Shown one piece after another: positions 11,967 to 33,085 of a stretch of DNA of 64,000 nucleotides. A program made the position numbers and the translations under genes. Below the pieces are notes generated by a model, which was not told the origin of the DNA, searched no databases, and saw only the letters and a list, made by a program, of their open reading frames with translations. Each line of letters opens with the position of its first letter. Within the stretch, counting starts at the first letter, position 1. The DNA comes from Candidatus Latescibacterota bacterium. Its GTDB lineage: Bacteria; Latescibacterota; UBA2968; UBA8231. The DNA lies in NCBI GenBank assembly GCA_965248355.1, contig OZ252098.1, positions 1,177,858-1,241,857 on the forward strand, in the 5' to 3' direction.

Positions 11967-13073
11967 TCAGCGGATCTTCAGGGTCGCCAGTCCCATGAGC
12001 GCCAGAATGCCGGCGATGATCCAGAATCGGATGACGATCTTGGTGTCGGCCAGCCCGCACGCCTGGAAGTGGTGGTGCACGGGGGCGCTGCGGAAGAACC
12101 GCCGCCCCAGCCAGCGGATGCCGATCTTCTCCTGGATCACCACCGAGAGCGCCTCGCCGACGAACACCCCTCCGACGATGAGGAACAGGAACTCCTGCTT
12201 CACCAGCACGACCACGGTTCCCAGCAGCCCGCCAAGGGCCATGGATCCGGTGTCCCCCATGATGACGTTGGCCGGGTAGGAATTGAACCACAGGAAGCCG
12301 AGACAGGCGCCGAAGACGGTGCAGCAGATGATGGTGACCTCGCCGGCCCCGGGGGTGAAGGGAAAGATGAGGAAGTCCGAGATGCGCGCGTGACTGGCCA
12401 CGTAGGCGAAGACCCCGTAGACGGCCACGGCGAAGGCCGCGGGCACCACGGCGAGCCCGTCGATGCCGTCGGCGATGTTCACGGAGTTGGCGATGGCCAC
12501 GAGGGTGAAGGCGATGAAGGGGACGTAGCCGAGGCCGAGATCGATGACCGGGGTCTTGACGAAGGGCAGGAAGAGCTTGGTGGCCAGACCCTCGGGCATG
12601 GGCGACAGGGGCTCGATGACAAAGGCCAGGCCGAAGGCCAGGCCGAAGAGGGCCTGGAGCACGAGCTTGGCCGATTCCGAGAGCCCGCGGTCGCTCGTGC
12701 CGTGGCGGACTTTCAGATGGTCGTCGAGGTAACCGAGGCCCGCGAACCAGATCACCGCCCCCAGGCTCATGAGGACGAAGGTCTCGTGCAGGCGGCACCA
12801 CAGCAGACAGCCGGCGAGCACCGAGGCCACCAGCAGGGGGCCGCCATAGGTCTTGGGGGCGCGGGACTTGGCCGGAGGAAAGTCGAAGCTGCGGCGCGTA
12901 TCGCGGCGGCCGCCGCGGTAGAGGGCGAGGATGACCCGGTCGCCGAGGAGGATGGTGAGCACCAGGGCGGTGATGGCCCCGCCGATGGCGCGGAAGCTGA
13001 TCGAGTCGAGCAGCCGCAGGAAGGACAGGGCCTCGACGCTTTCGTTCAGGTAGGTTCCCAGATAGTAGAGCAT
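11967..13073 (-). CDS. mraY: Phospho-N-acetylmuramoyl-pentapeptide transferase (MraY family, divergent)
   Basis: GYLDD, NSVNIADGIDGLA, NSYPANVIMGDTGS, APVHHHF motifs; multi-pass membrane protein. Confidence 0.92.
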   Translation of the reverse strand: MLYYLGTYLNESVEALSFLRLLDSISFRAIGGAITALVLTILLGDRVILALYRGGRRDTRRSFDFPPAKSRAPKTYGGPLLVASVLAGCLLWCRLHETFVLMSLGAVIWFAGLGYLDDHLKVRHGTSDRGLSESAKLVLQALFGLAFGLAFVIEPLSPMPEGLATKLFLPFVKTPVIDLGLGYVPFIAFTLVAIANSVNIADGIDGLAVVPAAFAVAVYGVFAYVASHARISDFLIFPFTPGAGEVTIICCTVFGACLGFLWFNSYPANVIMGDTGSMALGGLLGTVVVLVKQEFLFLIVGGVFVGEALSVVIQEKIGIRWLGRRFFRSAPVHHHFQACGLADTKIVIRFWIIAGILALMGLATLKIR

Positions 13074-13077
13074 GGGA

Positions 13078-15132
13078 TCAGCAGGCCGATTGGCCCATGC
13101 GCTCCAGGCCCTCGCGGACTCGGCGGGACAGGGAGTCCAGGCTGTCCTTCAACGGGAAGGCCGGTTCGAAGTTCGGTGAGGTGGACAGGATCTGCTCCAC
13201 GTCGGCGGCCACCTCCTCCGGCTGCAGCACCCGCCGCTCCAGCAGGCCCTCCAGGGCGTGCACCGTCTCCTGGCGGCAGCGCCAGTCCGGATGCACGTAG
13301 AACCGGCGCAGGTCCGCCAGGCGCTCGGCGCGGCAGGTGACCCGGCCGAGGGCCCCCAGGGCGGCTGCGACCACGGAGCTCACGCCGTCGCCCAGGGACT
13401 CGACGAGGGCCGCTTCCACCTCCTCGTCCCCCGGAGTCGCCTGCTCGCCGAGGAGGCGGGCGGCGGCGACGCGCACCTCGAAGTAGGGATCATCGGAGAG
13501 GGCCTCCAGGACCGCGGACCGGCCCTGCGGACCGGCCCGCCGCAGCCCGATCATGGACAGGGGGAAGTCGATCGCGTTCCGCCGCAGGATGCCGGGGTGA
13601 CGGTAGTCGCCGCCGGCGAGGCGCTGCAGCGGGCTGGCCGGGGTGCGGTCGCCGATCAGGGCGAGCACCAGGGGCAGGCGTTCCTCCCAGGCCAGCAGGC
13701 CCACGAGCTTGACCCCCACGTTGCGGCGGCCGTAGGGGATCTCGTACCAGCTCTCCGACGCCAGGTTCCGGTCGGCCTGGTAACGCAGGAAGGCCAGCTC
13801 CATCGGGCACAGGGCCTCCACCCCTCCCGCCTCGGCGATCCGGCTCCGCACGTGGCGCAGCAGACGATTCGGATCGGCCGGCACCCCGGCAGACCCGGCC
13901 ACGGGGTACTCGAGTCTCAGGGGCGGCGGACGGAGGCCCTGCCTCAGGCTGTCGATCTCGCCGAGGATGGCCTCCAGGCTGTCGCGCCGCGGCGCCGAGG
14001 CGGCGGCGGCGGCCATGCGCCCGCGCTCGTCCGGTCCGTCGAGGAGCTCGAGGATGGCGCCGGCGAGACGGGACCCGCTGACCGCCAGATCGACGCGCCC
14101 ATCCATGCGCCAGCTGGCCTCCTCGAACAGAACCCGGGCGGCTCCGAGCCCCTGAAGGGCCATGGCGTTGACCGCCTGGTGATCCTCGGCCGCCGTCGAC
14201 AGCGGCAGGATCACCGCCGGCAGACCGCACACGCCGACCTCGGTGAGGGTGCTCATGCCGCCCCTGCAGACCACGAGGTCGGCAGCGGCGTAGGCGGTCT
14301 CGATCTCCTCCATGTAGCCGAACCGGCGGTACCACTGCTCGAGATCCTGGAGGCCGGTCCGCTCCAGGGCGCCGGCGGTGTCCGCCACGGGGTCGTAGTC
14401 CTCCGAGACGTGGGCCCCCGTGCCGTGCAGGATGAGCAGCTCGTCGGCCCGGTTCGCCAGCAGCGGCAGGGCTTCGACCACGGCCCGGTTGATGGTCCTC
14501 GACCCCTGCGATCCTCCGAATATGAAGACGACGAGGCGATCTCCCTCGATCTCCCAGACCGCCCTCGCTCCCTCCCGGTCGAGGCGGGTCAGCTCGCGGC
14601 GCACCGGGAACCCGACCACCGCCACCCGCTTCATGTCGAACCAGCGGGCGGCTTGCTCGAAGACGACGCCGATGCGGTCGGCGATGCGACCGACGGCCTG
14701 GTTCAGCAGCCCGGGATGGGCGTTCGGCTCGTAGGCGAAGACCCTCGCCCGGCTCAGTCCGACCTTGCGCAGCAGACCGCTGGCGAACAGGATCGGAGCG
14801 CTCACGAAACCACCGGTGGCGAAGATCACATGGGGCCGGAACCGCAGCAGGACGAGGACCGCTCCGGCGACGCCGGCGGCCAGGACGAGGCTGAAGCGGA
14901 GCAGCGGCCAGGCGCGACGGGTGCGCGGAAAGGGCCTGGAAGGCAGCCGCCGCAGCGGATAGCCCCGGGCCGGCACGACGCGCTCCTCCAGCCGCCCCCG
15001 GACCCCCACGTACAGGAATCGAGCCTCGGGCTGGCGGCGCCGGATCTCGTCGGCCACGGCCAGCGCCGGGTACACATGGCCGCCGGTACCGCCGCCGGTG
15101 AACAGGTATCTCACGGACGAAGGGCCGATCAT
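13078..15132 (-). CDS. murG: MurG-family glycosyltransferase fused to a C-terminal HEAT-repeat domain
   Basis: GGGTGGHVYP, EPNAHPG, GGSQGS, RGGMSTLTE, DHQAVNA in the first ~400 aa; HEAT-like units (DDPYFEVRVAAARLLG, DGVSSVVAAALGALG, HPDWRCRQETVHAL) in the tail. Confidence 0.9.
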   Translation of the reverse strand: MIGPSSVRYLFTGGGTGGHVYPALAVADEIRRRQPEARFLYVGVRGRLEERVVPARGYPLRRLPSRPFPRTRRAWPLLRFSLVLAAGVAGAVLVLLRFRPHVIFATGGFVSAPILFASGLLRKVGLSRARVFAYEPNAHPGLLNQAVGRIADRIGVVFEQAARWFDMKRVAVVGFPVRRELTRLDREGARAVWEIEGDRLVVFIFGGSQGSRTINRAVVEALPLLANRADELLILHGTGAHVSEDYDPVADTAGALERTGLQDLEQWYRRFGYMEEIETAYAAADLVVCRGGMSTLTEVGVCGLPAVILPLSTAAEDHQAVNAMALQGLGAARVLFEEASWRMDGRVDLAVSGSRLAGAILELLDGPDERGRMAAAAASAPRRDSLEAILGEIDSLRQGLRPPPLRLEYPVAGSAGVPADPNRLLRHVRSRIAEAGGVEALCPMELAFLRYQADRNLASESWYEIPYGRRNVGVKLVGLLAWEERLPLVLALIGDRTPASPLQRLAGGDYRHPGILRRNAIDFPLSMIGLRRAGPQGRSAVLEALSDDPYFEVRVAAARLLGEQATPGDEEVEAALVESLGDGVSSVVAAALGALGRVTCRAERLADLRRFYVHPDWRCRQETVHALEGLLERRVLQPEEVAADVEQILSTSPNFEPAFPLKDSLDSLSRRVREGLERMGQSAC

Positions 15133-15225
15133 GTCGTCGCCGCGGGGGGGCGCGGGCGACTGCGTCGGAGGGGGAGCTGCGAGGGAGGGAGGCCCCTCGC
15201 CCGGGGTGGCTCAAGGGTCTGGTCC

Positions 15226-15254
15226 AGTATACACAGCGGTCCCAGGTCCGACAA
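15226..15254 (-). promoter_or_regulatory. Candidate internal sigma70 promoter for murG-mraY
   Basis: Minus strand TTGTCG(15254-15249)-N17-TATACT(15231-15226). Confidence 0.5.
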
Positions 15255-15267
15255 GCTCCGCCACGGC

Positions 15268-16017
15268 TCAGATCATGGTCACCAGGTCCGCCGGCAGCCA
15301 TCCGCCGAGACCGTTGTCCAGGCGGACCAGGAGCCACTCCCCCTCGCGGCGCTCCACGGTCACCTTCGTGCCCTCGTGAACGACGAACACGGGGGTCTGC
15401 CCGAGGTCGGGGCCGCCTCTCGCCTGTCCCTGGATAGCGGTGACCACCGCCTCGGAGAGGGTGAGCTCGCGGTGCAGGCGCGTGCCGGCGAAGGCTCCGA
15501 ACCCCAGGATCCCGCCGAGGCAGAGGCCGAGGGCCACCACCGCGGCCGGACCGGAGCCGCGCAGCAGGCGCCAGCTGGCCGCGGCGGCCAGCCCGAGCAG
15601 GCTCAGGGAGAGTCCGGCGAAGAGCTCGTTCGAGGTCGGCCAGAGGTAGAGCTCGTAGAGGAAGGCGCCGTCCTCTTCCTCTTCGCGGTCCCGCTTGATG
15701 CGGCGCAGGAACCGCAGGTTGGCCAGCACGTCCTCGTCCCTGGGCGCCACTCTCCGGGCGCGCTCGTACCAGACGATGGCCTCGCCCAGGCGGCCGTCCT
15801 TGAAGCAGGCGTTTCCGAGGTTGTAGAACAGGCGCTCGTCCCGGACCCCGGTGCCGGACGCCGCCAGGTAGCGCTGCCGGGCGCCGGCGAACTCGCCTCG
15901 CCGGTAGAGATCGTTGCCCTCGGCGTAGAGCCCCGCGGCGGCGGACTGGGCGGCGGCCTCGCCCACGGCGAGAACCGTGAACAGTCCCGCCGCCAGGAGG
16001 CGCAAGGGCCGGATCAC
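15268..16017 (-). CDS. batE: BatE-like TPR + SH3 protein
   Basis: Signal peptide, TPR (FYNLGNACFKDGRLGEAIVWYERA), two TM segments, SH3b end (VHEGTKV..WLLVRLDNGLGGWLP); GTG overlaps the upstream stop (GTGA). Confidence 0.85.
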   Translation of the reverse strand: MIRPLRLLAAGLFTVLAVGEAAAQSAAAGLYAEGNDLYRRGEFAGARQRYLAASGTGVRDERLFYNLGNACFKDGRLGEAIVWYERARRVAPRDEDVLANLRFLRRIKRDREEEEDGAFLYELYLWPTSNELFAGLSLSLLGLAAAASWRLLRGSGPAAVVALGLCLGGILGFGAFAGTRLHRELTLSEAVVTAIQGQARGGPDLGQTPVFVVHEGTKVTVERREGEWLLVRLDNGLGGWLPADLVTMI

Positions 16018-17801
16018 GACAGCGCCTTCCGGAGGAGGGCCATCGCCTCCTCGGTCTCCGCGAGCAGTTCCTCCCGGGTCCCGCGGTCGGTGTTGGCGGG
16101 CGCGTAGCGGCCGAACTCGCAGCGCTCCAGTACGGCGTCCACCCGGTCGACGAGGGCGGGGTCGACGCCCCGGTCCTCCAGCTCCTGCCGGCAACGGTCC
16201 CGGGTCAGACCGGGCGCCGGCCGGTTTCCCTGGTCGGCGATGAAGGCGACCACGGCCTCCTGCAGGGCGCCGTGAAAGCCGTCGCCCTCCGCCGCTCTCC
16301 GGCCCGCTTCCCGCAGGCGGCCGGCCAGCTCGCCGCCGGACCGACGCCGGCGAGCGTAGGCCGCATCCTTCTCCAGCCTGCGGCGATGGCGGTGCCAGGA
16401 GACCAGGGCCAGGTAGCCCAGGGGCAGCAGGGCGTGGGCGAACCAGTAGTAGCCGCTGCGGTACAGGGGTGAGGCGGCGCCGATGTGCGCCACGTCGGGC
16501 TTGATGTGCCGGATGTCGCGTCCGAGCCGCTCGATCTCGCGCCGCGTCAGGTCGTACCCCTCCCCGGCGGCGGCTGCGGCGCTGTCCGGGCGGCTGTGAA
16601 TCGCCATGGGCGCGCTCGAGGCCGTGCGGTACCGGTGGGACGCGGGATCGAAGTAGGCCACTCTCAGGGCCGGGATCTCCAGACGGCCTTCGCGCCCGGG
16701 GATCAGGATGTACTCGAGCCTCCTCGCAGCCCTGTACCGGCCGTCGGCGGAGCGTCCTTCCTCCACCTCCACCTTGGGCTCGTAGACCTCGAAGCCCCGG
16801 GGATGCAAGGCCGGCTCCGGGATGCTCTGCACGTTGCCGGTGCCCGTGATCGACACCTTCAGGGTGACCGGATCGCCGACGCGCACATCCCGGGGCCGGG
16901 CCTCGACGGAGATGCCGAACTCGCCCACGGCCCCCGCGAAGTCTCCGGGCCTCCCCTGTTCCGGTAGAGGTCGGACGTGGATGGAGACGGGCTCGCTGCG
17001 GATCATCAAGGCTCGACTGCGTCCGAAGATGGGGTCTTCCAGCAAGGAGCAGGTCAGCCCCAGGGGATCGATGACCTGGGAGCCGGAAGCGGTGGGGAAC
17101 AGCACGACGTGGCGCAGGGGGGCCACCTGGAACGGCAGCCCCTGGATCACCTCGCGATGGGGGTCCAGCCGCGAGGCGGCGAACAACTCCTTGACCCAGA
17201 ACCCGGTGTACTCCGGCACCTCGGCGAGCCGGGGGCCGCGCAGGTGGTACCGGTAGCACAGATCGAAGCGCACGTTCACCTGCTCTCCCACGTACGCCGT
17301 GTCCCGGTCGGCCTGCACCCGCACGAAGAGGTCGTCCTCGAGCTCCCGCTCTCCGGCCTCGCCGTCTCGCTCCGGCGTCCGCGCGGCGGTCTTGCCGAGG
17401 ACGTGCACCTCCACCTCTTCCGTGGTCAGGACCTCGCCCTCCGCCTGCAGACGCGCGGGACCGAGCGTGAACCGGCCCGGGTTCCGGGCGTAGAGGGTGT
17501 ACTTCAGCTCCCGGGTGAACCGCGCCCCCCTGTGGTCGTGGGACTCCATGTCCATCACCGAGGGACCATGGACGATGAACTCCCGCAGGTCGATGGTGGG
17601 CGCCGCCAGGTGGCTCAGGGGGGTCTCCGCGCTCAGACGCAGGGTCAGCTGGATCGGTTGAGACGCGGAGACCTGGCTGCGGTCCACGGCCAGGGTGAAC
17701 TCGATCTCCGGCCGGGCGGGTCCTGCCGACAGGAGCACGAGGGCCGCCATGAATTGCAGTCGGCGGGCCGGAAGGCGGGCCGGTACAGGGTTACCAGTCA
17801 C
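16014..17801 (-). CDS. batD: BatD-like protein (start GTG 17801 or ATG 17750)
   Basis: Beta-rich repeats, AYVGEQV, FAGAVGEF, VGDPVTLKVSITGTGN, YFDP, C-terminal TM and cytoplasmic domain; position in bat cluster. Confidence 0.85.
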   Translation of the reverse strand: MTGNPVPARLPARRLQFMAALVLLSAGPARPEIEFTLAVDRSQVSASQPIQLTLRLSAETPLSHLAAPTIDLREFIVHGPSVMDMESHDHRGARFTRELKYTLYARNPGRFTLGPARLQAEGEVLTTEEVEVHVLGKTAARTPERDGEAGERELEDDLFVRVQADRDTAYVGEQVNVRFDLCYRYHLRGPRLAEVPEYTGFWVKELFAASRLDPHREVIQGLPFQVAPLRHVVLFPTASGSQVIDPLGLTCSLLEDPIFGRSRALMIRSEPVSIHVRPLPEQGRPGDFAGAVGEFGISVEARPRDVRVGDPVTLKVSITGTGNVQSIPEPALHPRGFEVYEPKVEVEEGRSADGRYRAARRLEYILIPGREGRLEIPALRVAYFDPASHRYRTASSAPMAIHSRPDSAAAAAGEGYDLTRREIERLGRDIRHIKPDVAHIGAASPLYRSGYYWFAHALLPLGYLALVSWHRHRRRLEKDAAYARRRRSGGELAGRLREAGRRAAEGDGFHGALQEAVVAFIADQGNRPAPGLTRDRCRQELEDRGVDPALVDRVDAVLERCEFGRYAPANTDRGTREELLAETEEAMALLRKALS

Positions 17802-18540
17802 GGGCCTCGTCGCCCCCCCCGCGGGCGCGGTAACGCCGCTCCTGGGCCTCCTGCTCCCGATCGCGGAAGGCGTCGAGCAGGCGCTCCGCCTCCTCGCGGT
17901 CCAGGCCGCCCTCCTCCGCCGGGGGCGGCGCCTGCGCCTCGCCGTCCTCGTCATCGGGCTCCGGTGGCCCCTCGTCGGGCTCCGGAGAGGAGGATGGCCG
18001 CTGCTGCTGTTGCTCCTCCCCTTCCGGGGGATCCCGCTGATCCCCGTCCGGGGAATCCTGCTCCCCTCCGTCCGGGGGATCCTCCTGATTCTCACCGCCC
18101 TGCGGCTGGGGCGGCGGCAGCCGCTGCAGGGCGAGCTCCAGGTTCGCCTTGGCGTCGGCGTCGCCGGGGACCCGCTGCAGGGCCTGCCGATAGGCTTCGG
18201 CGGCGGCCGGATAGTCCTGCAGCTGGAAGTGGGTGTTCCCCTTGTTGTAGTGACCGCTCGCCGACAGGGCCGGGTCGGCGGCGGCGGCCACCCTCTCGAA
18301 CTCGCGCAGGGCTCTCTCGAAGTCGCCGAGCCGGAACTGGGCGTCGCCCACATTGAGATGGAGGCGAGCCGACTCCGGCCGCTCCACGAGGGCCTCCTTG
18401 TACATCTGCAGCGCTTCCTCGTAGCGTCCCGCCTCGTACAAAGCGCGGGCGGCCTCGTTCCGGGAGACGGCTCGATCGCCGATGCTGCGCGCCTGCGCCG
18501 CAGAGGCCGCGAGCAGCAGGACCAGAGCCAGCGCTCTCAC
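17791..18540 (-). CDS. batC: BatC-like TPR protein with Gln/Asp/Glu-rich tail
   Basis: TPRs (HYNKGNTHF, DAKANLELAL), low-complexity linker, EEAERLLDA and terminal DW. Confidence 0.85.
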   Translation of the reverse strand: MRALALVLLLAASAAQARSIGDRAVSRNEAARALYEAGRYEEALQMYKEALVERPESARLHLNVGDAQFRLGDFERALREFERVAAAADPALSASGHYNKGNTHFQLQDYPAAAEAYRQALQRVPGDADAKANLELALQRLPPPQPQGGENQEDPPDGGEQDSPDGDQRDPPEGEEQQQQRPSSSPEPDEGPPEPDDEDGEAQAPPPAEEGGLDREEAERLLDAFRDREQEAQERRYRARGGGDEARDW

Positions 18541-19565
18541 GCGAACCTCCCCCGCCACTCCCTCCGGCCGCGGGACCGCTCGGAGAGCAACCCCTCGGCC
18601 AGGAAGCAGGCCAGGGCCAGGGCCAGGGGGATCTGGAAGCGTTCCTCGTAGCGGGTGAAGCGCTCGGCTCCGAGCTCCTTCTGCTGCAGGCCGGAGATCC
18701 GGTCGGCCACGTCCTCCAACTCCCGGCCCGTGAGACTGCTGCGCCAGTAGGCGCCCTCCCCGGCGGCGGCCACCTCGCGCAGGGCGGCCTCGTCGAGACG
18801 GGACTTCACATAGTTGCCGTCGCGGTCCTTGTGGTAGTCCAGGCGGCTCCCGTCTTCGGACCCCAGGGGAATCAGGTCCCCCTCCGGCGAGCCGACGCCG
18901 ATGCAGAACAGGCGGACTCCCCGGTCGGCCAGCTGACCCGCGGCGTCGGCGGCCGAGCCCGTGTGCGCCTCGCCGTCGCTGAAGAGGACGGCCACCTTGT
19001 CGTTCCGGTCCTCGGGGTCGAAGACCCCCCCCGCCAGCTCGAGGGCCCGGGCCAGGGAGGTCCCCTGGGACGGAATGGCGTTCACGTCCACCGCGCCAAG
19101 GAGCAGGCGCAGAGCCGCGGTGTCGAGGGTCAGGGGACACTGGACGTAGGCGTTGGCGGCGAACACGACGAGAGCGACACGGTCGCCCTGGAGGTCGTCC
19201 AGCAGCTTGCCCATGGCCTGCCGCGCCCGTTCGAGCCGGTTCGGACGCACGTCCTCGGTGAGCATGCTGCGCGACAGATCGAGAAGGAGGACCACGTCCA
19301 CGCCGCGCCGCTGGGCCATCTCCAGGCGCACCCCGAACCGGGGGCCCGTGAGGGCCAGCGCCAGCAGCCCCAGGCCGGCCACGAGGAGGGCGGACTTCAC
19401 GTGCTGCCGGGTGCGGCTCACGCTCCGGATGAGGCGGGGAGCCACGGCGGCATGGGCCAGGCGCTCGAGGTCGCGCCGGCGGCGGCTGTGGGCCCAGGCC
19501 GCGAACCAGGCCGCCAGCGGCACCAGGAGCAGCAGCCATTGGTTGTGCTCGGCGGCGAAGCGCAT
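18537..19565 (-). CDS. batB: BatB-like VWA domain protein
   Basis: MIDAS DLSRSM, PNRLERA, QCPLTLD, FSDGE, KSRLDEAAL. Confidence 0.88.
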   Translation of the reverse strand: MRFAAEHNQWLLLLVPLAAWFAAWAHSRRRRDLERLAHAAVAPRLIRSVSRTRQHVKSALLVAGLGLLALALTGPRFGVRLEMAQRRGVDVVLLLDLSRSMLTEDVRPNRLERARQAMGKLLDDLQGDRVALVVFAANAYVQCPLTLDTAALRLLLGAVDVNAIPSQGTSLARALELAGGVFDPEDRNDKVAVLFSDGEAHTGSAADAAGQLADRGVRLFCIGVGSPEGDLIPLGSEDGSRLDYHKDRDGNYVKSRLDEAALREVAAAGEGAYWRSSLTGRELEDVADRISGLQQKELGAERFTRYEERFQIPLALALACFLAEGLLSERSRGRREWRGRFA

Positions 19566-25900: not shown

Positions 25901-26234
25901 TCTCCAGCGCCTCCAGGCTCTCCACGGTCAGGGGCGCCAGGCTGTGCAGCCCCCCTTCGGTCAGGTCGAGCCGCTGCGGATAACGGTCGGCGAGGAAGTT
26001 CACCATCCCGAGGATGGCCAGCACCAGGAGGCCTCCCCAGAAGGCGTTGAGCCAGCGACCGTACCGGCGGAACAGCTCGGGGTCGAGCACCGCCGAGGCG
26101 GCCACCAGAAGCGCCCCGAGGGCGGCGTTGGCCGCGGGCAGCCAGGTGGCCTCGGGCTCGAGGAGCATGGCCAGCCCGGCGGCGGCGAGAAGAGCCGCTC
26201 CGGCCAGGCTGGCGAAGGTCGAATAGGCCTTCAT
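22995..26234 (-). CDS. GldG-like ABC-transporter auxiliary protein with two tandem modules (1079 aa)
   Basis: Two copies of DLT..SL/TL, GHGE, HPI, VVFGDADF..N, WLAE motifs; ATG 26234 overlaps the permease stop (ATGA). Confidence 0.85.
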   Translation of the reverse strand: MKAYSTFASLAGAALLAAAGLAMLLEPEATWLPAANAALGALLVAASAVLDPELFRRYGRWLNAFWGGLLVLAILGMVNFLADRYPQRLDLTEGGLHSLAPLTVESLEALEKEVEALAFMEGGEDEELRGLLEQYAVHGGGRFDFEFVDPDRDPVRTQEYGVRAYNTLVVAAGDERLSLTELTEKEITNAMLKVLRDRRDRVYFTVGHGERGSGSLESDLGRLAERLREIDYVVSDSLFLAREARVPGDCRVLIIAGPRSPFLDHEVDAVRRYLDSGGSVLLLADALQETGLEALAGEWGVVTGDDFVIDTSGIGSLFGLDFTIPVVTTYDDVHPIARRHRGGVMTFYELARSVALDSSVVTANGSSAAVLARTSSESWAETDLSVLGEGAGGERTVRLDEADRRGPVGVGAAVADTASGGRLVVFGDADFASNRYFDSQGNGDLALNAVSWLAEDEALISIRPKAPGFNPIALTDTQSEWIFWITVILYPAAIALAGFVVVSRSGRWSLRDLAAAGLGVVLSLGVLVLLNYLGDRYHWRIDLTEDELFTLAPESLELLREAGDTGKYIQVRTFMSDMEGGRFQEIAEEYGYRSRRFDFETVDPQKDALLVRRYGIRERGTSIVEVTGAGKVVTERFTEQSEEALSNAIRRALAADERVIGFVGGHGEGGLTDVDGEGFSILNGRLKEMNLQIRDAVRPGTEDLTLVQVLAVLGPQSPLSAAEVEGVRRFLERGGDLLLLVDPVPDSGLEDLLLDEYDIDIGHDFVVDLSGLGQLLGTDVSVPVVLRYGDHPITEGAVRGQMSYFPMARSVSAASGGFGVEALAFTDRNAWGESDLAVLSGEEGGSIDFDPETDRPGPLSLAVAVSAEADSAAEGDETRIVVFGDADFARNQYFGQQANGELMAAAVRWLAEGEGSLTIPPKQPRFNPINLVGTAGSVILWISVFVLPFAVALSGFVIMLRRGYGTHVSGFVSWLVYNFLALGTWYYILGVIGLGEASLWRGEGCVVLGLLCWGLSYGLYKRDSRAWLPALATLAANAGLAFVVVPEPTLQLVLAGLSIANACILVWIRRDFHPAAAAA

Positions 26235-27016
26235 CGGCGCCAGCGCCTCGACTCGAGGACGCGCGTGGTGAGGAACAGGCAGAAGAAGATGAAACTCAGG
26301 TAGAAGAGAACGTCGGCGGTGTCGATGACGCCGCGCTGGAAGTCCTGCAGGTGCTGGATGATCGACAGGTAGGAGAGCAGCTTGGCCGCCGTGGGACCGG
26401 CGAAGCTCGCCGACCAGTCGATCAGCCACAGGAGCAGCAGCGCTCCGAAGGAGAGCAGCACGGCGACGATCTGGTTCTCCGTGAGGGACGAGGCCAGGAC
26501 GCCGACGGCGACGAAGGTGCCTCCGAGGAGCAGGTAGCCGAGATAGGCGGAGCCGATGGGCCCCCAGTCCGGGTCGCCGTAGACCTCGAGGATGAGGCAG
26601 AAGACGAGGGTCAGGGCGACGATGATGGTGTAGAGGGTGAGGGCCGCGAAGAACTTGCCGAGCAGGACCTGCACCGTCGAGATGGGTGAGGTCATGAGCA
26701 GCTCGATGGTGCCGCTCTTCTTCTCCTCCGCGAAGAGCCGCATGGTCAGCATGGGCACCACGAGGAGCCAGATGAAGTCCATGACCGCGAAGAACTGGGT
26801 GACCACCATCTCGTTGAGGTTCAGGCTGGGCATGGCCCCCTGCATGAACTGCTGGCGCTGACTGAACTGAAGGCACCAGAAGTTGAACTGCATCAGGATG
26901 TTGCGGAACAGGTACCCGGACAGGAACAGGAAGACGCCGGCGATCACGTAGGCCACGGGCGAGACGAAATAGGAGCGCAGCTCCTTGGTGTACATGGCGA
27001 GGAAGTTGCGCATCAC
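26231..27016 (-). CDS. ABC-2 type permease (GldF-like)
   Basis: KELRSYFVSPVAY, TMRLFAEEKKSGTIELLMTSP, SSLTENQIVA. Confidence 0.9.
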   Translation of the reverse strand: MMRNFLAMYTKELRSYFVSPVAYVIAGVFLFLSGYLFRNILMQFNFWCLQFSQRQQFMQGAMPSLNLNEMVVTQFFAVMDFIWLLVVPMLTMRLFAEEKKSGTIELLMTSPISTVQVLLGKFFAALTLYTIIVALTLVFCLILEVYGDPDWGPIGSAYLGYLLLGGTFVAVGVLASSLTENQIVAVLLSFGALLLLWLIDWSASFAGPTAAKLLSYLSIIQHLQDFQRGVIDTADVLFYLSFIFFCLFLTTRVLESRRWRR

Positions 27017-27975
27017 TGGACCTCTTCGGCTTCGGAGGTGAGACGCAGGAAGATGTCTTCCAGGGTCATGTCGAGGCTGCGCAGCTCGCGCAGGCCGTAA
27101 CCGCCGTCGACGACCGCCTTGGCCAGGGGATCGCGCAGGTCCTGCCCCGGAGCGGCGGTCACCACGTAGGCCCCTTCGTCGGCAGGGCCCTCGGGGCCCT
27201 CCGCGCCGGTCTCCTCCTTGGCCTCGAGCACGCCCGGCAGCCCCCGAAGCAGGCCGAGGACGTCCTCCCGGGGCCCGGCCACGCGGGCCCGCAGCAGCTC
27301 GCCCTCTTTCAACTGCTCCGTCAGGCTCTCCGGCGATCCCTGGCCGACGATGCGGCCCTTGTCGATGATGACCACCTGCTCACAGGTCATGGACACCTCC
27401 GGCAGGATGTGGGTGGAGAGCACGATCGTATGCTCCCCCCGCAGCGACTTGATCATCTCGCGGATCTCGATGATCTGCTTGGGGTCGAGGCCCACCGTCG
27501 GCTCGTCCAGGATCAGCACGCTCGGGTTGTGCACCAGGGCCTGGGCCAGGCCCACGCGCTGGCGGTAGCCCTTGGAGAGATGGCCGATCAGGCTGCGCCG
27601 CACGTGGGCGACGCCCGTCTTCTCCATGGTCTCGTCGATGCGGGAGGACATGACCGCCGAGGGCACGCCCTTGATGCGGGCCACGAAGCCGAGGTAGGCC
27701 TCCACGGTCATGTCGCTGTAGAGGGGCGGCAACTCGGGCAGGTACCCGATCCGCCGCCGCACCTCCATCGACTCCTCGGTGACGTCGAAGCCGTCGACGG
27801 TCGCCGTCCCCGAGGAGGGAGGCAGATAGCAGGTGACGATGCGCATGGTCGTCGTCTTGCCCGCCCCGTTGGGGCCGAGAAAGCCCATGATTTTCCCGGT
27901 CTCGGCGCGGAAGGTGACGTTGTCGATGGCCGTCACCTCCCCGTAGTGCTTGGACAGCTCGCGAACTTCGATCAC
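27013..27975 (-). CDS. ABC transporter ATP-binding protein (GldA-like)
   Basis: GPNGAGKTT, LSKGYRQRVGLAQA, ILDEPTVGLDP, STHIL. Confidence 0.93.
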   Translation of the reverse strand: MIEVRELSKHYGEVTAIDNVTFRAETGKIMGFLGPNGAGKTTTMRIVTCYLPPSSGTATVDGFDVTEESMEVRRRIGYLPELPPLYSDMTVEAYLGFVARIKGVPSAVMSSRIDETMEKTGVAHVRRSLIGHLSKGYRQRVGLAQALVHNPSVLILDEPTVGLDPKQIIEIREMIKSLRGEHTIVLSTHILPEVSMTCEQVVIIDKGRIVGQGSPESLTEQLKEGELLRARVAGPREDVLGLLRGLPGVLEAKEETGAEGPEGPADEGAYVVTAAPGQDLRDPLAKAVVDGGYGLRELRSLDMTLEDIFLRLTSEAEEVQ

Positions 27976-27989: not shown

Positions 27990-28868
27990 TCAGTTGCGGC
28001 TCATGCGGCCCTGGAAGAAACGGGCCAGCGGTTTCACGTGGTCCCGGGTGGCGTCGATGCGGATCTCGTCGACGCCGAGCCTGCGAAAGGCGTGGGTGCG
28101 CTGCCGGGCGGCCTCCCGGCGCAGCGCGGCGAAGCGGTCGCGGGCCTCGGCGTGACCGCTGTCGACGATCAGCTGCTCGCCGGTCTCCGCGTCCCGCAGG
28201 GTGACGAAGCCCACGTCGGGCAGCTCCATCTCCCGGGGGTCCTCCACGGTCACGGCGATCACGTCGTGGCGCCGGGCGGCGCGCTGCATGGCGCGCTCGT
28301 AGCCGGTGTCGAGGAAGTCGGAGATGACGAAAACCACCGCGTGCCGGGATATGACCCGGTCGAGGGTCTCCAGGGCGGTGGCGATCGAGGTGCCCCGGCC
28401 ACGGGGGCGGTGGTAGAGCAACTCGCGGATGACGCGCAGCACGTGGCGGCGGCCCTTCTTGGGGGGCACGAAGACCTCCACGGCGTCGGTGAAGATCAGC
28501 AGGCCGGCCCGGTCGTTGTTGCGGATCGCCGAGAAGGCCAGCAGAGCGGAGATCTCCACCGAGACCTCGCCCTTCATCCGGGGGCCCGAGCCGAAAGCGC
28601 CGGAAGCGCTGGCGTCGACCACGAGAAGGACGGTCAGCTCGCGCTCCTCGTCGAAGACCTTCACGAAGGGCTTGCCTCCGGCGCGGGCGGTCACGTTCCA
28701 GTCGATGGTGCGCACGTCGTCCCCCGGCTGGTACTCCCTCACCTCGGCGAACTGCATCCCGTGACCCTTGAAGACGGAGTGATACTCGCCGGCGAAGAGG
28801 TCGCTCACCAGGCGGCCGGCCTGGATCTCGATGCGGTGAACCTTGTCGAGGATCTCCTTGGGGACCAT
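27990..28868 (-). CDS. DUF58 (VWA-like) protein
   Basis: GMQFAEVREYQPGDDVRTIDWNVTAR, VKVFDEERE, VISDF. Confidence 0.93.
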   Translation of the reverse strand: MVPKEILDKVHRIEIQAGRLVSDLFAGEYHSVFKGHGMQFAEVREYQPGDDVRTIDWNVTARAGGKPFVKVFDEERELTVLLVVDASASGAFGSGPRMKGEVSVEISALLAFSAIRNNDRAGLLIFTDAVEVFVPPKKGRRHVLRVIRELLYHRPRGRGTSIATALETLDRVISRHAVVFVISDFLDTGYERAMQRAARRHDVIAVTVEDPREMELPDVGFVTLRDAETGEQLIVDSGHAEARDRFAALRREAARQRTHAFRRLGVDEIRIDATRDHVKPLARFFQGRMSRN

Positions 28869-28872
28869 GGCC

Positions 28873-29868
28873 TCAGGGCACCTCGACGTGATCGAAGAGC
28901 TGTTCCACGATGCGGTCGGAGTCGATCTGTTCGGCCTCGGCCTCGTAACTGGTGGCCACGCGATGGCGCAGCACGTCGGGGCCGACGGCCTTCACATCCT
29001 CGGGGGTCACGTAGCCGCGGCGCCGGATGAAGGCGTGGGCCCGGGCGGCGCGGGCCAGGAACAGCGTCGCCCTCGGCGAGGCGCCGTACTCGATGAGGGG
29101 CGCGAGCTCCTCGAGGCCGGCCGCGCCCGGCTCTCGGGTGGTCTGCACCAGATCGACGATGTAGTCCTTGATCTTGTCGTCCATGTAGACCAGGCGGATC
29201 GATTCGCGCAACCGCAGAATGTCGTCCAGACCGGCTACCGCCTCGATGGGAATCTCGCGGTCCTCCATCATGCGCTCGAGGATCTGCCTCTCCTCGTCGC
29301 GAGCCGGGTAGTCCACACGGACCTTGAGCATGAAGCGATCGATCTGCGCTTCGGGCAGGGGATAGGTCCCCTCCTGCTCGATCGGGTTCTGGGTGGCCAT
29401 GACCAGGAACGGATCGTCGAGGGCGTAGCTCTCGTCCCCGATCGTCACCTGGCGTTCCTGCATGGCTTCGAGCAGCGCGCTCTGCACCTTGGCCGGGGCG
29501 CGGTTGATCTCGTCGGCGAGGATGAGGTTGGCGAAGATGGGCCCCTTGCGGGCCACGAACTCGCCCGAGTGCTGCTGGTAGATCAGCGTGCCCGTGAGAT
29601 CCGCCGGGAGCAGATCGGGTGTGAACTGGATGCGGTTGAAGCGGCCTCGAATGATGCGCGCCAGACTGCTGACCGTCAGGGTCTTGGCCAGGCCCGGCAC
29701 GCCTTCGAGCAGGATGTGCCCGCCGCACAGGAAGCCGATGAAGATCCGCTCCACCATCTGCCGCTGGCCGACGATGACGCGGTCCATCTCGGCCAGGATG
29801 CGGCCCAGGAGCAGACTCTCCTCCTCGATGCGCGCCGTGAGGGCGCCGATGTCCGGGTTGGCCTGCAC
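28873..29868 (-). CDS. moxR: MoxR family AAA+ ATPase
   Basis: LEGVPGLAKT, RIQFTPDLLPAD, DEINRAPAKVQSALLEAM, ATQNPIEQEGTYPLPEAQ. Confidence 0.96.
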   Translation of the reverse strand: MQANPDIGALTARIEEESLLLGRILAEMDRVIVGQRQMVERIFIGFLCGGHILLEGVPGLAKTLTVSSLARIIRGRFNRIQFTPDLLPADLTGTLIYQQHSGEFVARKGPIFANLILADEINRAPAKVQSALLEAMQERQVTIGDESYALDDPFLVMATQNPIEQEGTYPLPEAQIDRFMLKVRVDYPARDEERQILERMMEDREIPIEAVAGLDDILRLRESIRLVYMDDKIKDYIVDLVQTTREPGAAGLEELAPLIEYGASPRATLFLARAARAHAFIRRRGYVTPEDVKAVGPDVLRHRVATSYEAEAEQIDSDRIVEQLFDHVEVP

Positions 29869-29933
29869 GGAATCTCAGCACCCTCCCCGGGCGGTCGTGG
29901 TCTCGAGCGGTGTCATTTCCCCGTCGTGAGAAC

Positions 29934-30458
29934 TCAAGGCGAGGCGGTGCTGTCCCCTTCCTGGAAGCTCACCCATTCCTCCGGAGGGCGTCCCACGTGG
30001 GGCAGCAGTTGACGGGCGTTGGCAGCCAGCTCGGAGCTCGGATAGTTGTCGATGACGGCCTGGTAGGCGGCGCGCGCGGCATCGAGGTCGCCGAGATGCT
30101 CCTCGAGGATGAAGGCGATCATGAACTGCGACTCATCGGCCTCGTCGCTGTCGGGATACTCGGCCAGGATGCGCTCGTACTGGGCCAGGGCGCCCATCAT
30201 GTCGCCGCCCTGCTGGCGCAGAATGGCCAGCTGCTTCAACGCCTGAGGCCGGCCCCCATCCTCCGGGTGGACCTGCAGGTAGGCTTCGAGAAGCTCGACC
30301 GCCGCGGACGCTTGGGTCGAGTCCCGCGCCGCCGCCCGGGCCGCCTGGAGGGCTTCGTCCAACTGTTGATCGGCCGAGGGCCCGCTGCATCCGGCCCCGA
30401 CCCACAGCATGGCGGCCCCGATCATCGGGGGGATCCTGGCGGCCCATTGGCTGCTCAT
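29934..30458 (-). CDS. TPR lipoprotein (CpoB/BamD-like repeats; start approximate)
   Basis: Lipobox-like GAGC; TPR units (YERILAEYPDS, YQAVIDNYPSS). Confidence 0.75.
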   Translation of the reverse strand: MSSQWAARIPPMIGAAMLWVGAGCSGPSADQQLDEALQAARAAARDSTQASAAVELLEAYLQVHPEDGGRPQALKQLAILRQQGGDMMGALAQYERILAEYPDSDEADESQFMIAFILEEHLGDLDAARAAYQAVIDNYPSSELAANARQLLPHVGRPPEEWVSFQEGDSTASP

Positions 30459-30558
30459 CTCACTGCACACCTGCTGTCTCTCCGGTCTGGCGCGGCTGGC
30501 ACCAACGACCCTCACATCGAGAAAAAGACGCCCCGAGTGGCCGCCGGTTCCCTCGCCT

Positions 30559-30885
30559 TCAACTGTCTTCCGACTTGGAGGAGGCCGGCTTCCTGGCCGA
30601 GTCGCCTTTGCCGCCCTCGCCCGACTTGGAGGACGCAGGCTTCGAGTCGGGCGTGTCGGCCTTGGCCGCCTTCTTGTAGTTGTCGCTCCGGTAGTCGGTG
30701 ATGTAGAACCCGGAGCCCTTGAACAGCAGGCCCCCACCGGTCCCGATCAGCCGGCGCACCCGGCCCCGGCCCGAGCCCTCCGGGCATTCGCTCCGGGGAC
30801 ATCTCTCCAGCGGCTCGGCGGTGATTCTCTGGAGCGCCTCGAACTGGTGTCCGCACGTCTTGCATTCATATTCGTAGGTCGGCAT
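30559..30885 (-). CDS. FmdB family zinc-ribbon protein
   Basis: MPTYEYECKTCGHQFE..CPRSEC..FKGSGFYITDY. Confidence 0.9.
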   Translation of the reverse strand: MPTYEYECKTCGHQFEALQRITAEPLERCPRSECPEGSGRGRVRRLIGTGGGLLFKGSGFYITDYRSDNYKKAAKADTPDSKPASSKSGEGGKGDSARKPASSKSEDS

Positions 30886-30925
30886 GTGACATCTTCCCGG
30901 TGCTGCGCGGCCGAGGGAAACTAGA

Positions 30926-30954
30926 ATACTACGCAGGTATGTTGGAATGGGCAA
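30926..30954 (-). promoter_or_regulatory. Candidate sigma70 promoter upstream of FmdB-like gene
   Basis: Minus strand TTGCCC(30954-30949)-N17-TAGTAT(30931-30926). Confidence 0.45.
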
Positions 30955-30982
30955 CGCCTGCACCCGCCCTGCGGACCCGTCC

Positions 30983-33085
30983 CTACCCTCCGCCGGGGAG
31001 GCCCGCCTCGGCCGGCAGGTCATCGGTCTCCTCGAGCACCAAGACCGGCAGATCCTCCCTCTTCAGGGGCCGGACTCGACCCCGGCCGTCGATCCTCAGA
31101 AGGGTCAGCTCGGAATTCACGCGGCGAGAGGGGCCAAAACTCACCCGTCCGGAGGCTCCTTCGTAGTGGCGCAGATCGGCGAGGTATCGCCGCAGGCCGG
31201 TGCGGCTGTGGTGGCCGGCCCGCCAGCCCTCCATGACGAGGCGCGCGGCATCGTATCCCGCGCTGGCGTAGCCCGGATCCCGCCCGGTCCGCGAGCGGAA
31301 GGCGTCGACGAAGTTCCGCTCGTGCTCCGATCCCTGGCGCCGGGAGACGAAGATGCAACCCTTCACGTGCTGGCGCTCCGTGGACGGCAATTCCGAGATC
31401 GCCTCGGGATCGTACCACCTATCGTTGCCGAGCAACTGCGTCTGGATTCGGTGGAAGCGCAACTGCGGTGCGATGGTGCGGGCGTCTTCGAAGAGCTCGA
31501 TGATCACGGCCGCGCCGTCGATGGACTCGATGAAGATCTCCGCCGAGTCCGGTGGTTCCTCGACGGGAACCACCGCCTGATCGACGAGTTCCCGGAAGGT
31601 CGATTCGCCCTCCAGGCTCGTGTCCAGAAGGGCCCCCTCGAGGGAGTCGAGCAGCTCGGGGCGGATCCTCTCCGGGAGCTCGAGGGAGAAACCGATCTGA
31701 CGCAACTCCTGGAACTGCGCCTGAAAGTCCTTCTGCTCCCCGGGATAGTACCATTCGCTGTGGACGATCCGTCCGCCGTTGGCCACGGCGGCCGCGGTGA
31801 AGGCCTTCTCGAAGGCGTGCCCGTCGTCGCTGAGCGGCGAGAGGATGGCGAGGGTGTGCAGGCCGAGCACGAGGGTGGCGTACTCGGCCAGGGCCTGGCC
31901 TTGAACCTCGGGAATCGGGTTCAGCTGGAAAATGTGTCGCCCCAGGGTATCCAGACCGCTCTGCTGGGCCAGTGGGGCGATGAGCGGCACTCCCGCCGCT
32001 TCGGCCACGGCGGCGGCGGCGGCGCAGGAGGGGGAGAACACGGGACCGACGATCGCTTGCACATCCGCCTCCCCGGCCAGGAAGCGGGCACCGGAGACGA
32101 CGCGAACGAGCCGGTCGCCGTCGCTCTGGTAGATGGGCACCTCCTCTTCCTCGAAGTCCTCGTACTCCGCGCCGGTGTCGACGACGACGATGTCGAAGGG
32201 CTTTCCGAGCTCGTCGTTGGCCAACTCGACACCCTCGAGCAGATCGACCCCGATGGCCCCCTCGCGGCCGGAGAAGGGCGCGAGCACCCCGAGCCGCGGC
32301 ACTCCCCGACGACGGGCCGGCTTGCCGGCTGCCGGCTCACGCGGAGGCCGGTCAGGCGCTCCTCCCTCCAGCGCGGAGCGCGCGAGACGGTGGAACATCC
32401 CTGTCTCACCCGCGCTGTCGATGTACGCCGACAGCCGGCTGCGGGCGAGCTCGACCCAGCCGAGCCGTCCGTACCAGCGCGCCTCGCCATAGAGCAGGGC
32501 ATGGCGCATTCCCCGGGACCCCAGGCGGCGGATGCGGTCCTGCATCTCCGTATCGAGCGACCGGTTCCTCACCATTCCGGCCAGACGCTCGGCGGCGCTG
32601 GCCTGGAGCGCCACCGGGCCCGACCCTTCGAGAAGCCGGGCGTACTCGAGGGCGGCCTCGTCGTGGCGGCCCAGCACGTAGTACCCGTCGCCCGCGACCA
32701 TCCGGGCATCGCCGGCATAGCGCCCGCCCGGGGACTCCCGAAGGAGGCGCCGAGCCGCCCGCACCGCACCCGCGGCGTCGTCCAGACGCAACCGGCTGCG
32801 GCCGAGCATCAGCAGCGCCGCCATCGAGCGATGATTGGCCGGCAACTCGGTGACGGCGGCAAAGCGCTCGCTCGCCGCCCGCCAGTGACCCTCTTCGCAG
32901 GCAGCAAGGCCCTGCGAGAACAGGCGCTCCGCCGCGCGCGAGTAGCGTCCATCCTCGACGGCCTGGGAAGCATGGGGCCCGCTCAGGAGGGCCAGCGCGC
33001 ACAGGGCGCTGACGAGCCGGGAGATGCCTTGTCCCCGCTGCGGGGCCCGGTTACATTCGCCGAGGGCTCGCGCCTCCATCCTCAC
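30983..33085 (-). CDS. TPR + periplasmic-binding-protein fold protein (LpoA/LppC-like)
   Basis: Signal peptide, N-terminal TPRs, then LGVLAPFSG, IVGPVFS, GVPLIAP, GYDAARL, YEGASGRVSF. Confidence 0.75.
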   Translation of the reverse strand: MRMEARALGECNRAPQRGQGISRLVSALCALALLSGPHASQAVEDGRYSRAAERLFSQGLAACEEGHWRAASERFAAVTELPANHRSMAALLMLGRSRLRLDDAAGAVRAARRLLRESPGGRYAGDARMVAGDGYYVLGRHDEAALEYARLLEGSGPVALQASAAERLAGMVRNRSLDTEMQDRIRRLGSRGMRHALLYGEARWYGRLGWVELARSRLSAYIDSAGETGMFHRLARSALEGGAPDRPPREPAAGKPARRRGVPRLGVLAPFSGREGAIGVDLLEGVELANDELGKPFDIVVVDTGAEYEDFEEEEVPIYQSDGDRLVRVVSGARFLAGEADVQAIVGPVFSPSCAAAAAVAEAAGVPLIAPLAQQSGLDTLGRHIFQLNPIPEVQGQALAEYATLVLGLHTLAILSPLSDDGHAFEKAFTAAAVANGGRIVHSEWYYPGEQKDFQAQFQELRQIGFSLELPERIRPELLDSLEGALLDTSLEGESTFRELVDQAVVPVEEPPDSAEIFIESIDGAAVIIELFEDARTIAPQLRFHRIQTQLLGNDRWYDPEAISELPSTERQHVKGCIFVSRRQGSEHERNFVDAFRSRTGRDPGYASAGYDAARLVMEGWRAGHHSRTGLRRYLADLRHYEGASGRVSFGPSRRVNSELTLLRIDGRGRVRPLKREDLPVLVLEETDDLPAEAGLPGGG

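Follow-up and report, generated by a model that had tools for sequence, protein, structure and literature searches.

Introduction

Bat operons and ATP-binding cassette (ABC) modules of the GldAFG/DUF4340 type are both widespread gene sets without a known mechanism. A system that shares components with both has been described in archaea, where operons encoding arCOG01314 proteins (DUF4350, GldG-like) mostly also encode vWA and MoxR proteins and are predicted to function in secretion or membrane remodeling, as laid out in the accessible part of the survey (Makarova, Galperin, Koonin 2015, PMC5898192). In R. leguminosarum, RL3499 has reportedly a part in keeping the membrane intact and in cell morphology (Vanderlinde 2011, as cited in the accessible part of PMC3893208). 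Here, we analyze a gene cluster from a Candidatus Latescibacterota bacterium in which genes of the Bat type and an ABC module of the Gld type stand side by side in a single co-directional array. It occupies positions 11967-33085 of a 64,000-nucleotide (nt) stretch of DNA, hereafter called the window (GenBank assembly GCA_965248355.1, contig OZ252098.1, positions 1,177,858 to 1,241,857). Within the literature searched, which excluded bioRxiv supplements and subscription journals, we found no description of a Bat operon with a Gld-type ABC module, and the accessible part of the Latescibacteria genome paper is silent on the cluster (PMC4454575).

A predicted Bat operon with an embedded ABC module

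Profile scans of the window proteins against Pfam and NCBIfam, combined with the selection of reading frames by codon-position GC content (GC3; the window has ~70% G+C), resolve the region into 17 genes, every one of them on the minus strand. The array is bordered by a convergent plus-strand open reading frame (ORF) for a membrane protein (11487-11966) and by a divergent AAA_2 ATPase gene (33115-34635). In the order of transcription, it encodes an LpoA-like protein, FmdB, a TPR lipoprotein, MoxR, DUF58, GldA, GldF, GldG, DUF4340, Mem322, BatA to BatE, MurG-HEAT and MraY. An earlier inspection of the letters alone (the sequence-only reading) had proposed 17 consecutive minus-strand genes with largely these identities, and its list stands, except that the gene models of FmdB and the TPR lipoprotein had to be corrected and that the protein it had called a "Bat membrane protein", here named Mem322, appears to be DUF4381/BatD-like. 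The close packing that it had noticed is equally real: there are three overlaps (GldA/GldF and BatD/BatE, -4 nt each; BatB/BatC, -22 nt) and seven gaps of 3-25 nt (MoxR/DUF58, at 4 nt, DUF58/GldA, GldG/DUF4340, DUF4340/Mem322, Mem322/BatA, BatA/BatB and MurG/MraY). Wider gaps separate the LpoA-like gene from FmdB (97 nt), FmdB from the TPR lipoprotein (~100 nt), the latter from MoxR (65 nt) and BatE from MurG (135 nt).

The 12 genes from MoxR to BatE resemble described Bat operons in several respects. MoxR, an AAA+ ATPase of the AAA_3 type (28873..29868; AAA_3 217 bits, AAA_lid_2 79.5 bits), is the first gene of the tightly spaced core and is followed at the 5' end by DUF58 (27990..28868; DUF58 275 bits), a VWA-like protein with a DASAS motif of the metal ion-dependent adhesion site (MIDAS) type at residue 85 and no transmembrane (TM)-like segment, which we read as a cytoplasmic partner of MoxR. 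Further downstream are two membrane-anchored VWA proteins with intact MIDAS motifs. BatA (19570..20541; VWA 77.5 bits, BatA 27 bits against a cut-off of 25.9) combines a BatA_N membrane anchor with a VWA domain containing DVSGS at residue 98, and BatB (18537..19565; VWA_2 69.8 bits) has DLSRS at residue 96 and TM-like segments at residues 55-79 and 310-328. They are followed, in the order known from Parabacteroides, by BatC (17791..18558; TPR_16 79.5 bits, TPR_BatC_Lepto 92.5 bits, the latter below its cut-off), a secreted TPR protein whose tail is acidic and rich in Pro; BatD (16014..17750, start uncertain; BatD domain 94.9 bits), in which a TM segment and a stretch rich in Arg are followed by a helical domain at the C-terminus; and BatE (15268..16017; TPR_2 33.5 bits, SH3_3 28.5 bits), the last gene of the conserved core, with a signal peptide and a two-TM hairpin. 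In contrast to the window, none of the three reference operons (Parabacteroides, Leptospira and Persicobacter) carries four ABC genes between DUF58 and the DUF4381-like gene, and none is preceded by the window's three upstream genes, although such absences are soft, since gene context outside the lineage was taken from annotated plasmid and chromid records and the PLSDB gene tables are incomplete.

The position of the ABC genes relative to the Bat operon hinges on Mem322 (20545..21513; 322 aa). In an alignment of 20 orthologues, this protein shows a signal peptide, a periplasmic beta domain, a conserved LRDIKPP..GGIPLW motif, a single TM helix, a stretch rich in Arg and a helical domain containing the motif ADLVKFAR, and it thus has the same architecture as the BatD protein of the window. 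The window copy matches no Pfam family, but DUF4381 is detected in 10 of the 20 orthologues (best 2.4e-6) and BatD in four, and the closest ESM Atlas clusters bear either DUF4381 or BatD. The Persicobacter operon has a gene annotated as DUF4381 at the corresponding place, after DUF58 and before the VWA genes. For B. fragilis, the accessible part of the Borrelia paper (PMC5700661) assigns BatD domains to bf2420 as well as to bf2416, and in the window, too, BatD and the third gene probably have a BatD-like domain in common. Mem322 thus probably corresponds to the gene that usually stands third in a Bat operon, which would place the ABC module inside this operon rather than beside it.

The inserted module consists of four genes. 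The ATPase, GldA (27013..27975), belongs to the type V/ABC-2 class, and the closest solved relatives of its nucleotide-binding domain (NBD) are those of ABCA7/4/1/3 (2e-65), NosF (2e-39) and LptB (1e-36). GldF (26231..27016; ABC2_membrane_2 56.7 bits) is an ABC-2 permease with no match in a sequence search of the PDB. The accessory protein GldG (22995..26168; ABC_transp_aux 145 bits in two stretches, DUF4350 67 bits with a cut-off of 30.4, IFT52_GIFT 68 bits) is a tandem protein of 1057 aa, with TM segments on either side of each of its two ABC_transp_aux/DUF4350/GIFT ectodomains (TM-like 9-61, 458-513, 906-940 and 1004-1047); IFT52 is its sole PDB sequence match. The fourth gene encodes a DUF4340 protein of 480 aa (21527..22969; 188.8 bits in three stretches), composed of an N-terminal TM helix and three tandem DUF4340 repeats. 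A module with ABC ATPase, permease, GldG and DUF4340 in the identical order, without MoxR or Bat genes, is found on Bradyrhizobium plasmid p195_1. There, however, GldG comprises 511 aa and DUF4340 175 aa, whereas GldG is duplicated and DUF4340 triplicated in the window, and the window copy differs from the generic module in being embedded in a Bat operon.

The names of these proteins raise the question of whether they form the GldAFG transporter of gliding motility, in which case the cluster would serve gliding or type IX secretion. GldA, GldF and GldG are indeed their best NCBIfam matches, but all three fall well short of the equivalog cut-offs (GldA, TIGR03522, 311.6 vs 402.6; GldF, TIGR03518, 159.9 vs 288.5; GldG, 102.3 vs 389.85). 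Moreover, there is no other gld, spr or type IX secretion gene among the genes scanned in the first 42 kb of the window, and the same module exists in Bradyrhizobium, making a role in gliding extremely unlikely. A looser comparison can be drawn with type V ABC machines such as the ABCA lipid exporters, NosDFY and LptB2FGC, which have large extracytoplasmic domains. The NBD of the window protein is nearest to theirs, and an ABC-2 permease is likewise combined with a large, separate ectodomain protein, although this likeness is an analogy only.

The DUF4340 protein appears to adopt a fold without a solved relative, which we put on record here. Its AlphaFold2 model (pLDDT 87.9) shows the N-terminal helix followed by three similar beta/alpha repeats, and a lone repeat is modeled at a pLDDT of 91.1. 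When compared with PDB folds, the full model gave no match at E <= 0.001, with TM-scores of 0.14 or less, and the single repeat again none at E <= 0.001, its best hits being the uncharacterized protein 4q0y (TM ~0.44) and YycH (2fgt; TMq 0.38). We rejected both as names for the fold, as the matches are too weak. A search of PDB sequences with the DUF4340 profile returned nothing meaningful, and tblastn against plasmids returned no match.

The core is a tight unit conserved throughout one lineage

A single profile scan of GTDB species genomes, with patterns derived from the DUF4340 alignment, retrieved 56 loci from 55 metagenome-assembled genomes (MAGs), two of the loci (L045 and L049) lying on two contigs of the same MAG. 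They are labeled Latescibacterota (40), Gemmatimonadota (14), Planctomycetota (1) or unclassified (1), and their DUF4340 proteins show 36-83% identity over the loci. We mapped the window proteins to these loci by tblastn and counted each gene over those loci whose contig reaches the respective position. The 15 genes from LpoA-like to BatE proved to be colinear and on one strand at 41/41 to 55/55 loci: LpoA-like and FmdB 42/42 each, TPR lipoprotein 43/43, MoxR 46/46 (68-96% identity), DUF58 49/49, GldA 50/50, GldF 51/51, GldG 55/55, BatA 51/51, BatB 49/49, BatC 46/46, BatD 44/44 and BatE 41/41. The sole exception is Mem322 (52/53), which is missing from L007. Such a recurrence of one gene order across 56 loci of 55 MAGs lies far beyond chance.

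Projected spacing is tight from MoxR through BatE and includes both boundaries of the ABC module. DUF58 and GldA are separated by a median of 16 nt (n=49), and DUF4340 and Mem322 by a median of -4 nt (n=41), with 95% of the values at 30 nt or less; in many loci of the sister clade, one base belongs both to the stop codon of DUF4340 and to the start codon of Mem322. Median distances are larger between LpoA-like and FmdB (89 nt), between the TPR lipoprotein and MoxR (112 nt) and between BatE and MurG (127 nt). The projected BatA-BatB and FmdB-TPR distances were ignored, as they are artefacts of cross-matches between paralogues and of an over-long query. The co-occurrence of Bat and Gld-type genes, which the sequence-only reading had suggested surveying in related genomes, is thus that of one tight, conserved unit, with junctions that are close in 41-49 loci. 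The cluster is lineage-specific and deeply conserved, while its flanks change.

Some individual loci deserve mention. In L003 (11453-12400), Mem322 was recovered in two tblastn pieces and its ORF spans just 215 aa, and in L040 (4718-5660), GldA likewise falls into two pieces; a frameshift or a sequencing error is possible in both cases. The phylum labels of NCBI clash in places. L003 ("Latescibacterota") and L004 ("Gemmatimonadaceae") are sisters at ~0.02 substitutions per site, L043 carries a Gemmatimonas label (a G. phototrophica MAG), and one locus is labeled Planctomycetota. Such labels are no guide to the phylum of the window, for which its high G+C content and the label of L043 speak in favor of Gemmatimonadota.

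The murG and mraY genes probably form a separate neighboring unit

The two genes that follow BatE in the window encode enzymes assigned to lipid I/II synthesis. The first (13078..15132; GT28 N 81 bits, GT28 C 94.5 bits, HEAT_2) is a MurG protein fused to a C-terminal extension of ~340 aa with HEAT repeats (about residues 341-684). It contains GGTGGH at residues 14-19, which we take to be the MurG loop, and scores 203.5 with TIGR01133, below the cut-off of 250.25, with the last ~40 positions of the model unmatched. The second encodes MraY (11967..13073; TIGR00445 267.9 vs cut-off 192), with DD at residue 117 and HHH at residue 333, presumably the MraY motifs. A search for the fusion yielded at least 120 matches of 629-714 aa and 52-99% identity, with GT28 and HEAT in all matches listed. 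Since the fusion is lineage-wide, MurG-HEAT is probably a housekeeping protein, and, judged by sequence, the pair probably represents the lineage's lipid I/II enzymes.

Of the 41 loci with contigs that reach beyond BatE, 14 have MurG-HEAT as the following gene, and MraY comes next in all 14. The other 27 loci all have a gene for a Gfo/Idh/MocA oxidoreductase at this place, which is found in none of the 14 and is also missing from the window. In a maximum-likelihood tree of concatenated MoxR, DUF58, GldA, GldF and DUF4340 sequences (52 rows; L023 and L029 were dropped for having few markers), the two states are split by a single branch with an SH-aLRT value of 99, corresponding to one change, and the linkage of murG and mraY to the cluster therefore reflects one historical event. 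The distance between BatE and MurG is 30 nt or less in none of the 14 loci. In the window, the 135-nt gap (15133..15267) contains a sigma-70-like site on the minus strand (TTGTCG-17-TATACT, 15254-15226), and it likely marks the start of a separate murG-mraY unit.

A scan of positions 11400-31300 identified three promoter-like sites, compared with 0.7 +/- 1.1 in shuffled sequences, and among them is the one at 15226-15254, with 9/12 matches. This site had been put forward in the sequence-only reading together with a second candidate at 30926-30954, which the scan did not call; read by eye, it has 8/12 matches, under the threshold of 9/12. Terminators were not in excess (3 found vs 3.7 expected), and scans of the window with Rfam and for tRNAs found nothing. 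The region comprises three or four neighboring predicted transcription units, not one 17-gene machine.

These results bear on the proposal that all 17 genes encode one chaperone/export machine tied to peptidoglycan building, in which lipid II would come from MurG-HEAT and MraY, and a penicillin-binding protein (PBP) would be under the control of an activator of the LpoA type. The co-directional arrangement of the genes speaks for such a machine, as do the position of MurG-HEAT/MraY directly after BatE in the window and 14 loci, the SH3_3 domain of BatE, the CpoB/YbgF-like repeats of the TPR lipoprotein, the TPR plus binding-protein-fold architecture of the LpoA-like protein and the gene for a PAP2 lipid-phosphate phosphatase after BatE in Parabacteroides. 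On the other hand, murG-HEAT and mraY are absent from this place in most of the loci, their presence traces back to a single change in the phylogeny, BatE and murG are nowhere closely spaced, with a promoter-like site between them in the window, and MurG-HEAT is probably a housekeeping protein of the whole lineage. In addition, the LpoA-like protein has neither a lipobox nor an LpoA family or PDB match, and the CpoB and BamD scores of the TPR lipoprotein lie far under the cut-offs. We consequently consider the peptidoglycan machine very unlikely, and the link to lipid II, including the expectation that murG-HEAT and mraY would stay with the bat/gld block in relatives, is not supported. Instead, it is very likely that the 12-gene MoxR-BatE core represents a canonical Bat operon interrupted after DUF58 by the four genes of an ABC module and, jointly with this, that murG-HEAT/mraY is a separate unit brought beside the cluster by a single rearrangement in one subclade. 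The unsupported link to lipid II synthesis is thereby removed, and what remains on record is the lineage-wide MurG-HEAT fusion.

The genes that border this side of the cluster provide some further observations. In the sister clade (L010-L054), the Gfo/Idh/MocA gene is co-directional and 80-100% identical, with a length of 351 aa in L020 (17705-18760); past this gene, L020 and L012 diverge. The plus-strand ORF at 11487-11966, which abuts the mraY stop codon convergently, encodes a four-TM protein of 159 aa that matches no Pfam family and has a counterpart with 41-72% identity in 9 of the 14 loci bearing murG/mraY. In Parabacteroides distasonis (L058, NZ_OY725834.1), the PAP2-family lipid-phosphate phosphatase gene (19381-20073) starts 3 nt after BatE, so that a polyprenyl/lipid-phosphate enzyme is placed as murG/mraY are in the window; this is a single case.

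Proposed function of the combined cluster

Topology predictions offer a framework for thinking about how the products of the core may be arranged. MoxR and DUF58 are predicted to be cytoplasmic, and the MIDAS-bearing VWA domains of BatA and BatB would be periplasmic, held on inner-membrane anchors, in agreement with the periplasmic VWA domain of the BatB-like Borrelia protein BB0173, as described in the accessible part of PMC5700661. The periplasm would also accommodate BatC, the N-terminal parts of BatD and Mem322, the TPR and SH3 regions of BatE (the SH3 domain because the two-TM hairpin places it there), GldG and DUF4340. The helical tails of BatD and Mem322, by contrast, are predicted to be cytoplasmic and could meet MoxR or DUF58.

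On this basis, the products may assemble into one inner-membrane-anchored, periplasm-facing complex for envelope maintenance, with MoxR/DUF58 acting on the tails that BatD and Mem322 extend into the cytoplasm. The ABC module might convey the energy of ATP to the periplasmic VWA/TPR scaffold through the large ectodomains of GldG and DUF4340, or it might transport a substrate, lipidic or linked to a lipid, for handling by the scaffold. As the best explanation overall, this account strikes us as evenly balanced between right and wrong. That the Bat and ABC modules work together at all, a coupling that we infer from gene order, seems slightly less than evenly likely. A more far-reaching reading, which we regard as somewhat unlikely, is that they form one periplasm-spanning inner-membrane machine with two ATPases, in which MoxR operates from the cytoplasm and the ABC transporter powers or feeds the scaffold. 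The specific mechanism outlined above is rather unlikely to be correct in its particulars. A predicted complex of DUF4340 with residues 23-190 of Mem322 scored 0.12 against a mark of 0.32, which speaks neither for nor against binding. Of the initial idea of one Bat-Gld machine tied to peptidoglycan, the conserved tight unit has thus been retained, with coupling as a possible consequence, and the tie to peptidoglycan has been dropped.

The archaeal arCOG01314 system provides a possible functional parallel. According to the accessible part of its description (PMC5898192), it unites MoxR, vWA and a membrane-anchored DUF4350/GldG-like ectodomain of flavodoxin fold in one predicted operon, as the window does in one tight unit, but it lacks the ABC ATPase and permease, DUF4340 and BatA-E and instead includes Ig-like proteins of the S-layer type. 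The window cluster can be said to work like this system by analogy, without being a member of it, because the Ig-like S-layer components are absent. Among six MoxR neighborhoods inspected in annotated plasmid and chromid records, none contained the ABC/GldG/DUF4340 set, but in one of them, from Haladaptatus, MoxR is immediately preceded by a DUF4350 gene, matching the arCOG01314 operons of PMC5898192. This DUF4350-MoxR pair, on a Haladaptatus halobius plasmid (L061, 7851-9990), adjoins a block of genes for glycosyltransferases and nucleotide-sugar enzymes, with GT2, GT4, WecB and a dehydrogenase (10233-18909). RL3499-RL3502 resembles the core as a MoxR operon of the MRP type and, as far as it is described in the accessible part of PMC3893208, fits an envelope role; it differs in having four genes and no ABC module.

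A different way to account for the arrangement is that the modules are co-transcribed yet functionally independent, the ABC/GldG/DUF4340 cassette having landed once in an ancestral Bat operon from which its clean removal is unlikely. Both modules can stand alone, the ABC module in Bradyrhizobium and the Bat module in Parabacteroides, Leptospira and Persicobacter; the loci all fall within a single lineage; and no domain fusions join the two. However, their order and tight spacing have persisted at 36-45% DUF4340 identity while the flanks turned over, no locus has lost one module only, save L007, where Bat genes are lost at a contig end, and a separate association of MoxR/vWA with a GldG-like protein exists in archaea. 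We therefore regard independence of the modules as somewhat unlikely.

The reading as a joint machine has to be weighed against a number of other points. All 56 loci belong to one lineage, so that the union of Bat and ABC genes is possibly a single insertion kept by descent, and there is no independent recurrence of the arrangement, although the scan patterns were drawn from the DUF4340 subfamily of the window and left other phyla effectively unsampled. L007 lacks Mem322, BatA, BatB and BatC, with DUF4340 followed by BatD and with shortened MoxR and DUF58. We found no DUF4340-Bat domain fusion; a search for longer DUF4340 fusion proteins returned two, both containing DUF4340 only, which is weak evidence. 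Where translation starts is uncertain for GldG, BatD and the LpoA-like gene. Close packing of the bat genes in Leptospira goes along with independent transcription, as stated in the accessible part of PMC3557215. The same source describes Bat function as elusive, with conflicting phenotypes (aerotolerance in Bacteroides, none in L. biflexa). Finally, the mechanism, including substrate, stoichiometry and contacts, is inference only. With regard to L007, its intervals at ~4362-5005 and 11452-11549 reflect either decay of the cluster or an assembly error, the MAG contig being of low coverage.

The phenotypes reported for Bacteroides lead to yet another interpretation, namely an aerotolerance system that counters oxidative stress, with the ABC module exporting either a protective substance or reducing equivalents. 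Mutation of bat deprives B. fragilis of its aerotolerance (Tang 1999, summarized in the accessible part of PMC3557215), the original proposal included the export of reducing power (PMC3557215, same part), and moxR and batA mutants of Riemerella are altered in their survival of oxidative stress, according to the accessible part of PMC11834572. By contrast, bat deletions in L. biflexa produced no oxidative-stress phenotype (accessible part of PMC3557215), the cluster contains no redox domain detectable with Pfam or NCBIfam, and the peroxiredoxin gene of the window (~6682-7305) is unlinked to it, rendering an aerotolerance function quite unlikely.

Cooperation of the Bat and ABC modules in the cell envelope is a specific and testable hypothesis, suggested by the retention of the ABC module inside the Bat operon across a deep clade, with overlapping stop and start codons at the module boundary. 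If true, it would constitute the first concrete functional link between two orphan systems, Bat, which has been unexplained since 1999, and the GldAFG-type transporters. It would also parallel the MoxR/vWA/GldG-like operons of archaea, suggesting that the partnership is general and of ancient origin.

The upstream genes and other neighbors of the core

The genes for the LpoA-like protein, FmdB and the TPR lipoprotein are constant upstream neighbors of the core, with their own looser spacing. The linkage of the LpoA-like gene to the bat/gld block, which had been singled out for scrutiny in relatives, is kept wherever the contig reaches it. The protein (30983..33085, start uncertain) is secreted and combines TPRs with a type I periplasmic-binding-protein fold (Peripla_BP_6 93 bits, plus ANF_receptor and TPR_16), and it is "LpoA-like" by architecture only. 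By our own reading of the sequence, its N-terminus is signal-peptide-like without a canonical lipobox, no LpoA model matched in Pfam or NCBIfam, and no LpoA chain was among its PDB matches, the best of which is the LivJ-type protein 4gnr (8.6e-16). We therefore rejected membership in the LpoA/LppC family, its nearest relatives being LivJ-type binding proteins, and the earlier suggestion of an LpoA-type PBP activator is not sustained. Only 29 nt (33086-33114) lie between the longest ORFs of this gene and the divergent AAA_2 (HslU/ClpX-like) gene, so that at least one of the two starts is probably located further in. In L007, this AAA_2 gene is likewise found upstream of the LpoA-like gene.

FmdB (30559..30885) is a zinc-ribbon protein of 108 aa that exceeds the cut-offs of both Zn_ribbon_8 (49.8 bits) and TIGR02605 (53.3 bits); in the corrected gene model, the ATG at 30885 opens the zinc ribbon. 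The TPR_6 lipoprotein (29934..30458; TPR_6 49.5 bits) has a signal peptide that ends in a lipobox cysteine (...WVGAG|C). Its repeats are YbgF/CpoB/BamD-like but remain under every family cut-off, scoring 41.7 vs 90.1 with tol_pal_ybgF (TIGR02795) and 41.2 vs 383 with PRK10803.

Sigma-54 patterns were no more frequent than expected (39 matches vs 49) and occurred in none of the relevant gaps of the cluster. Just outside the cluster, the minus strand at 34639-36168 encodes a sigma-54-dependent response regulator with receiver, Sigma54_activat and HTH_8 domains.

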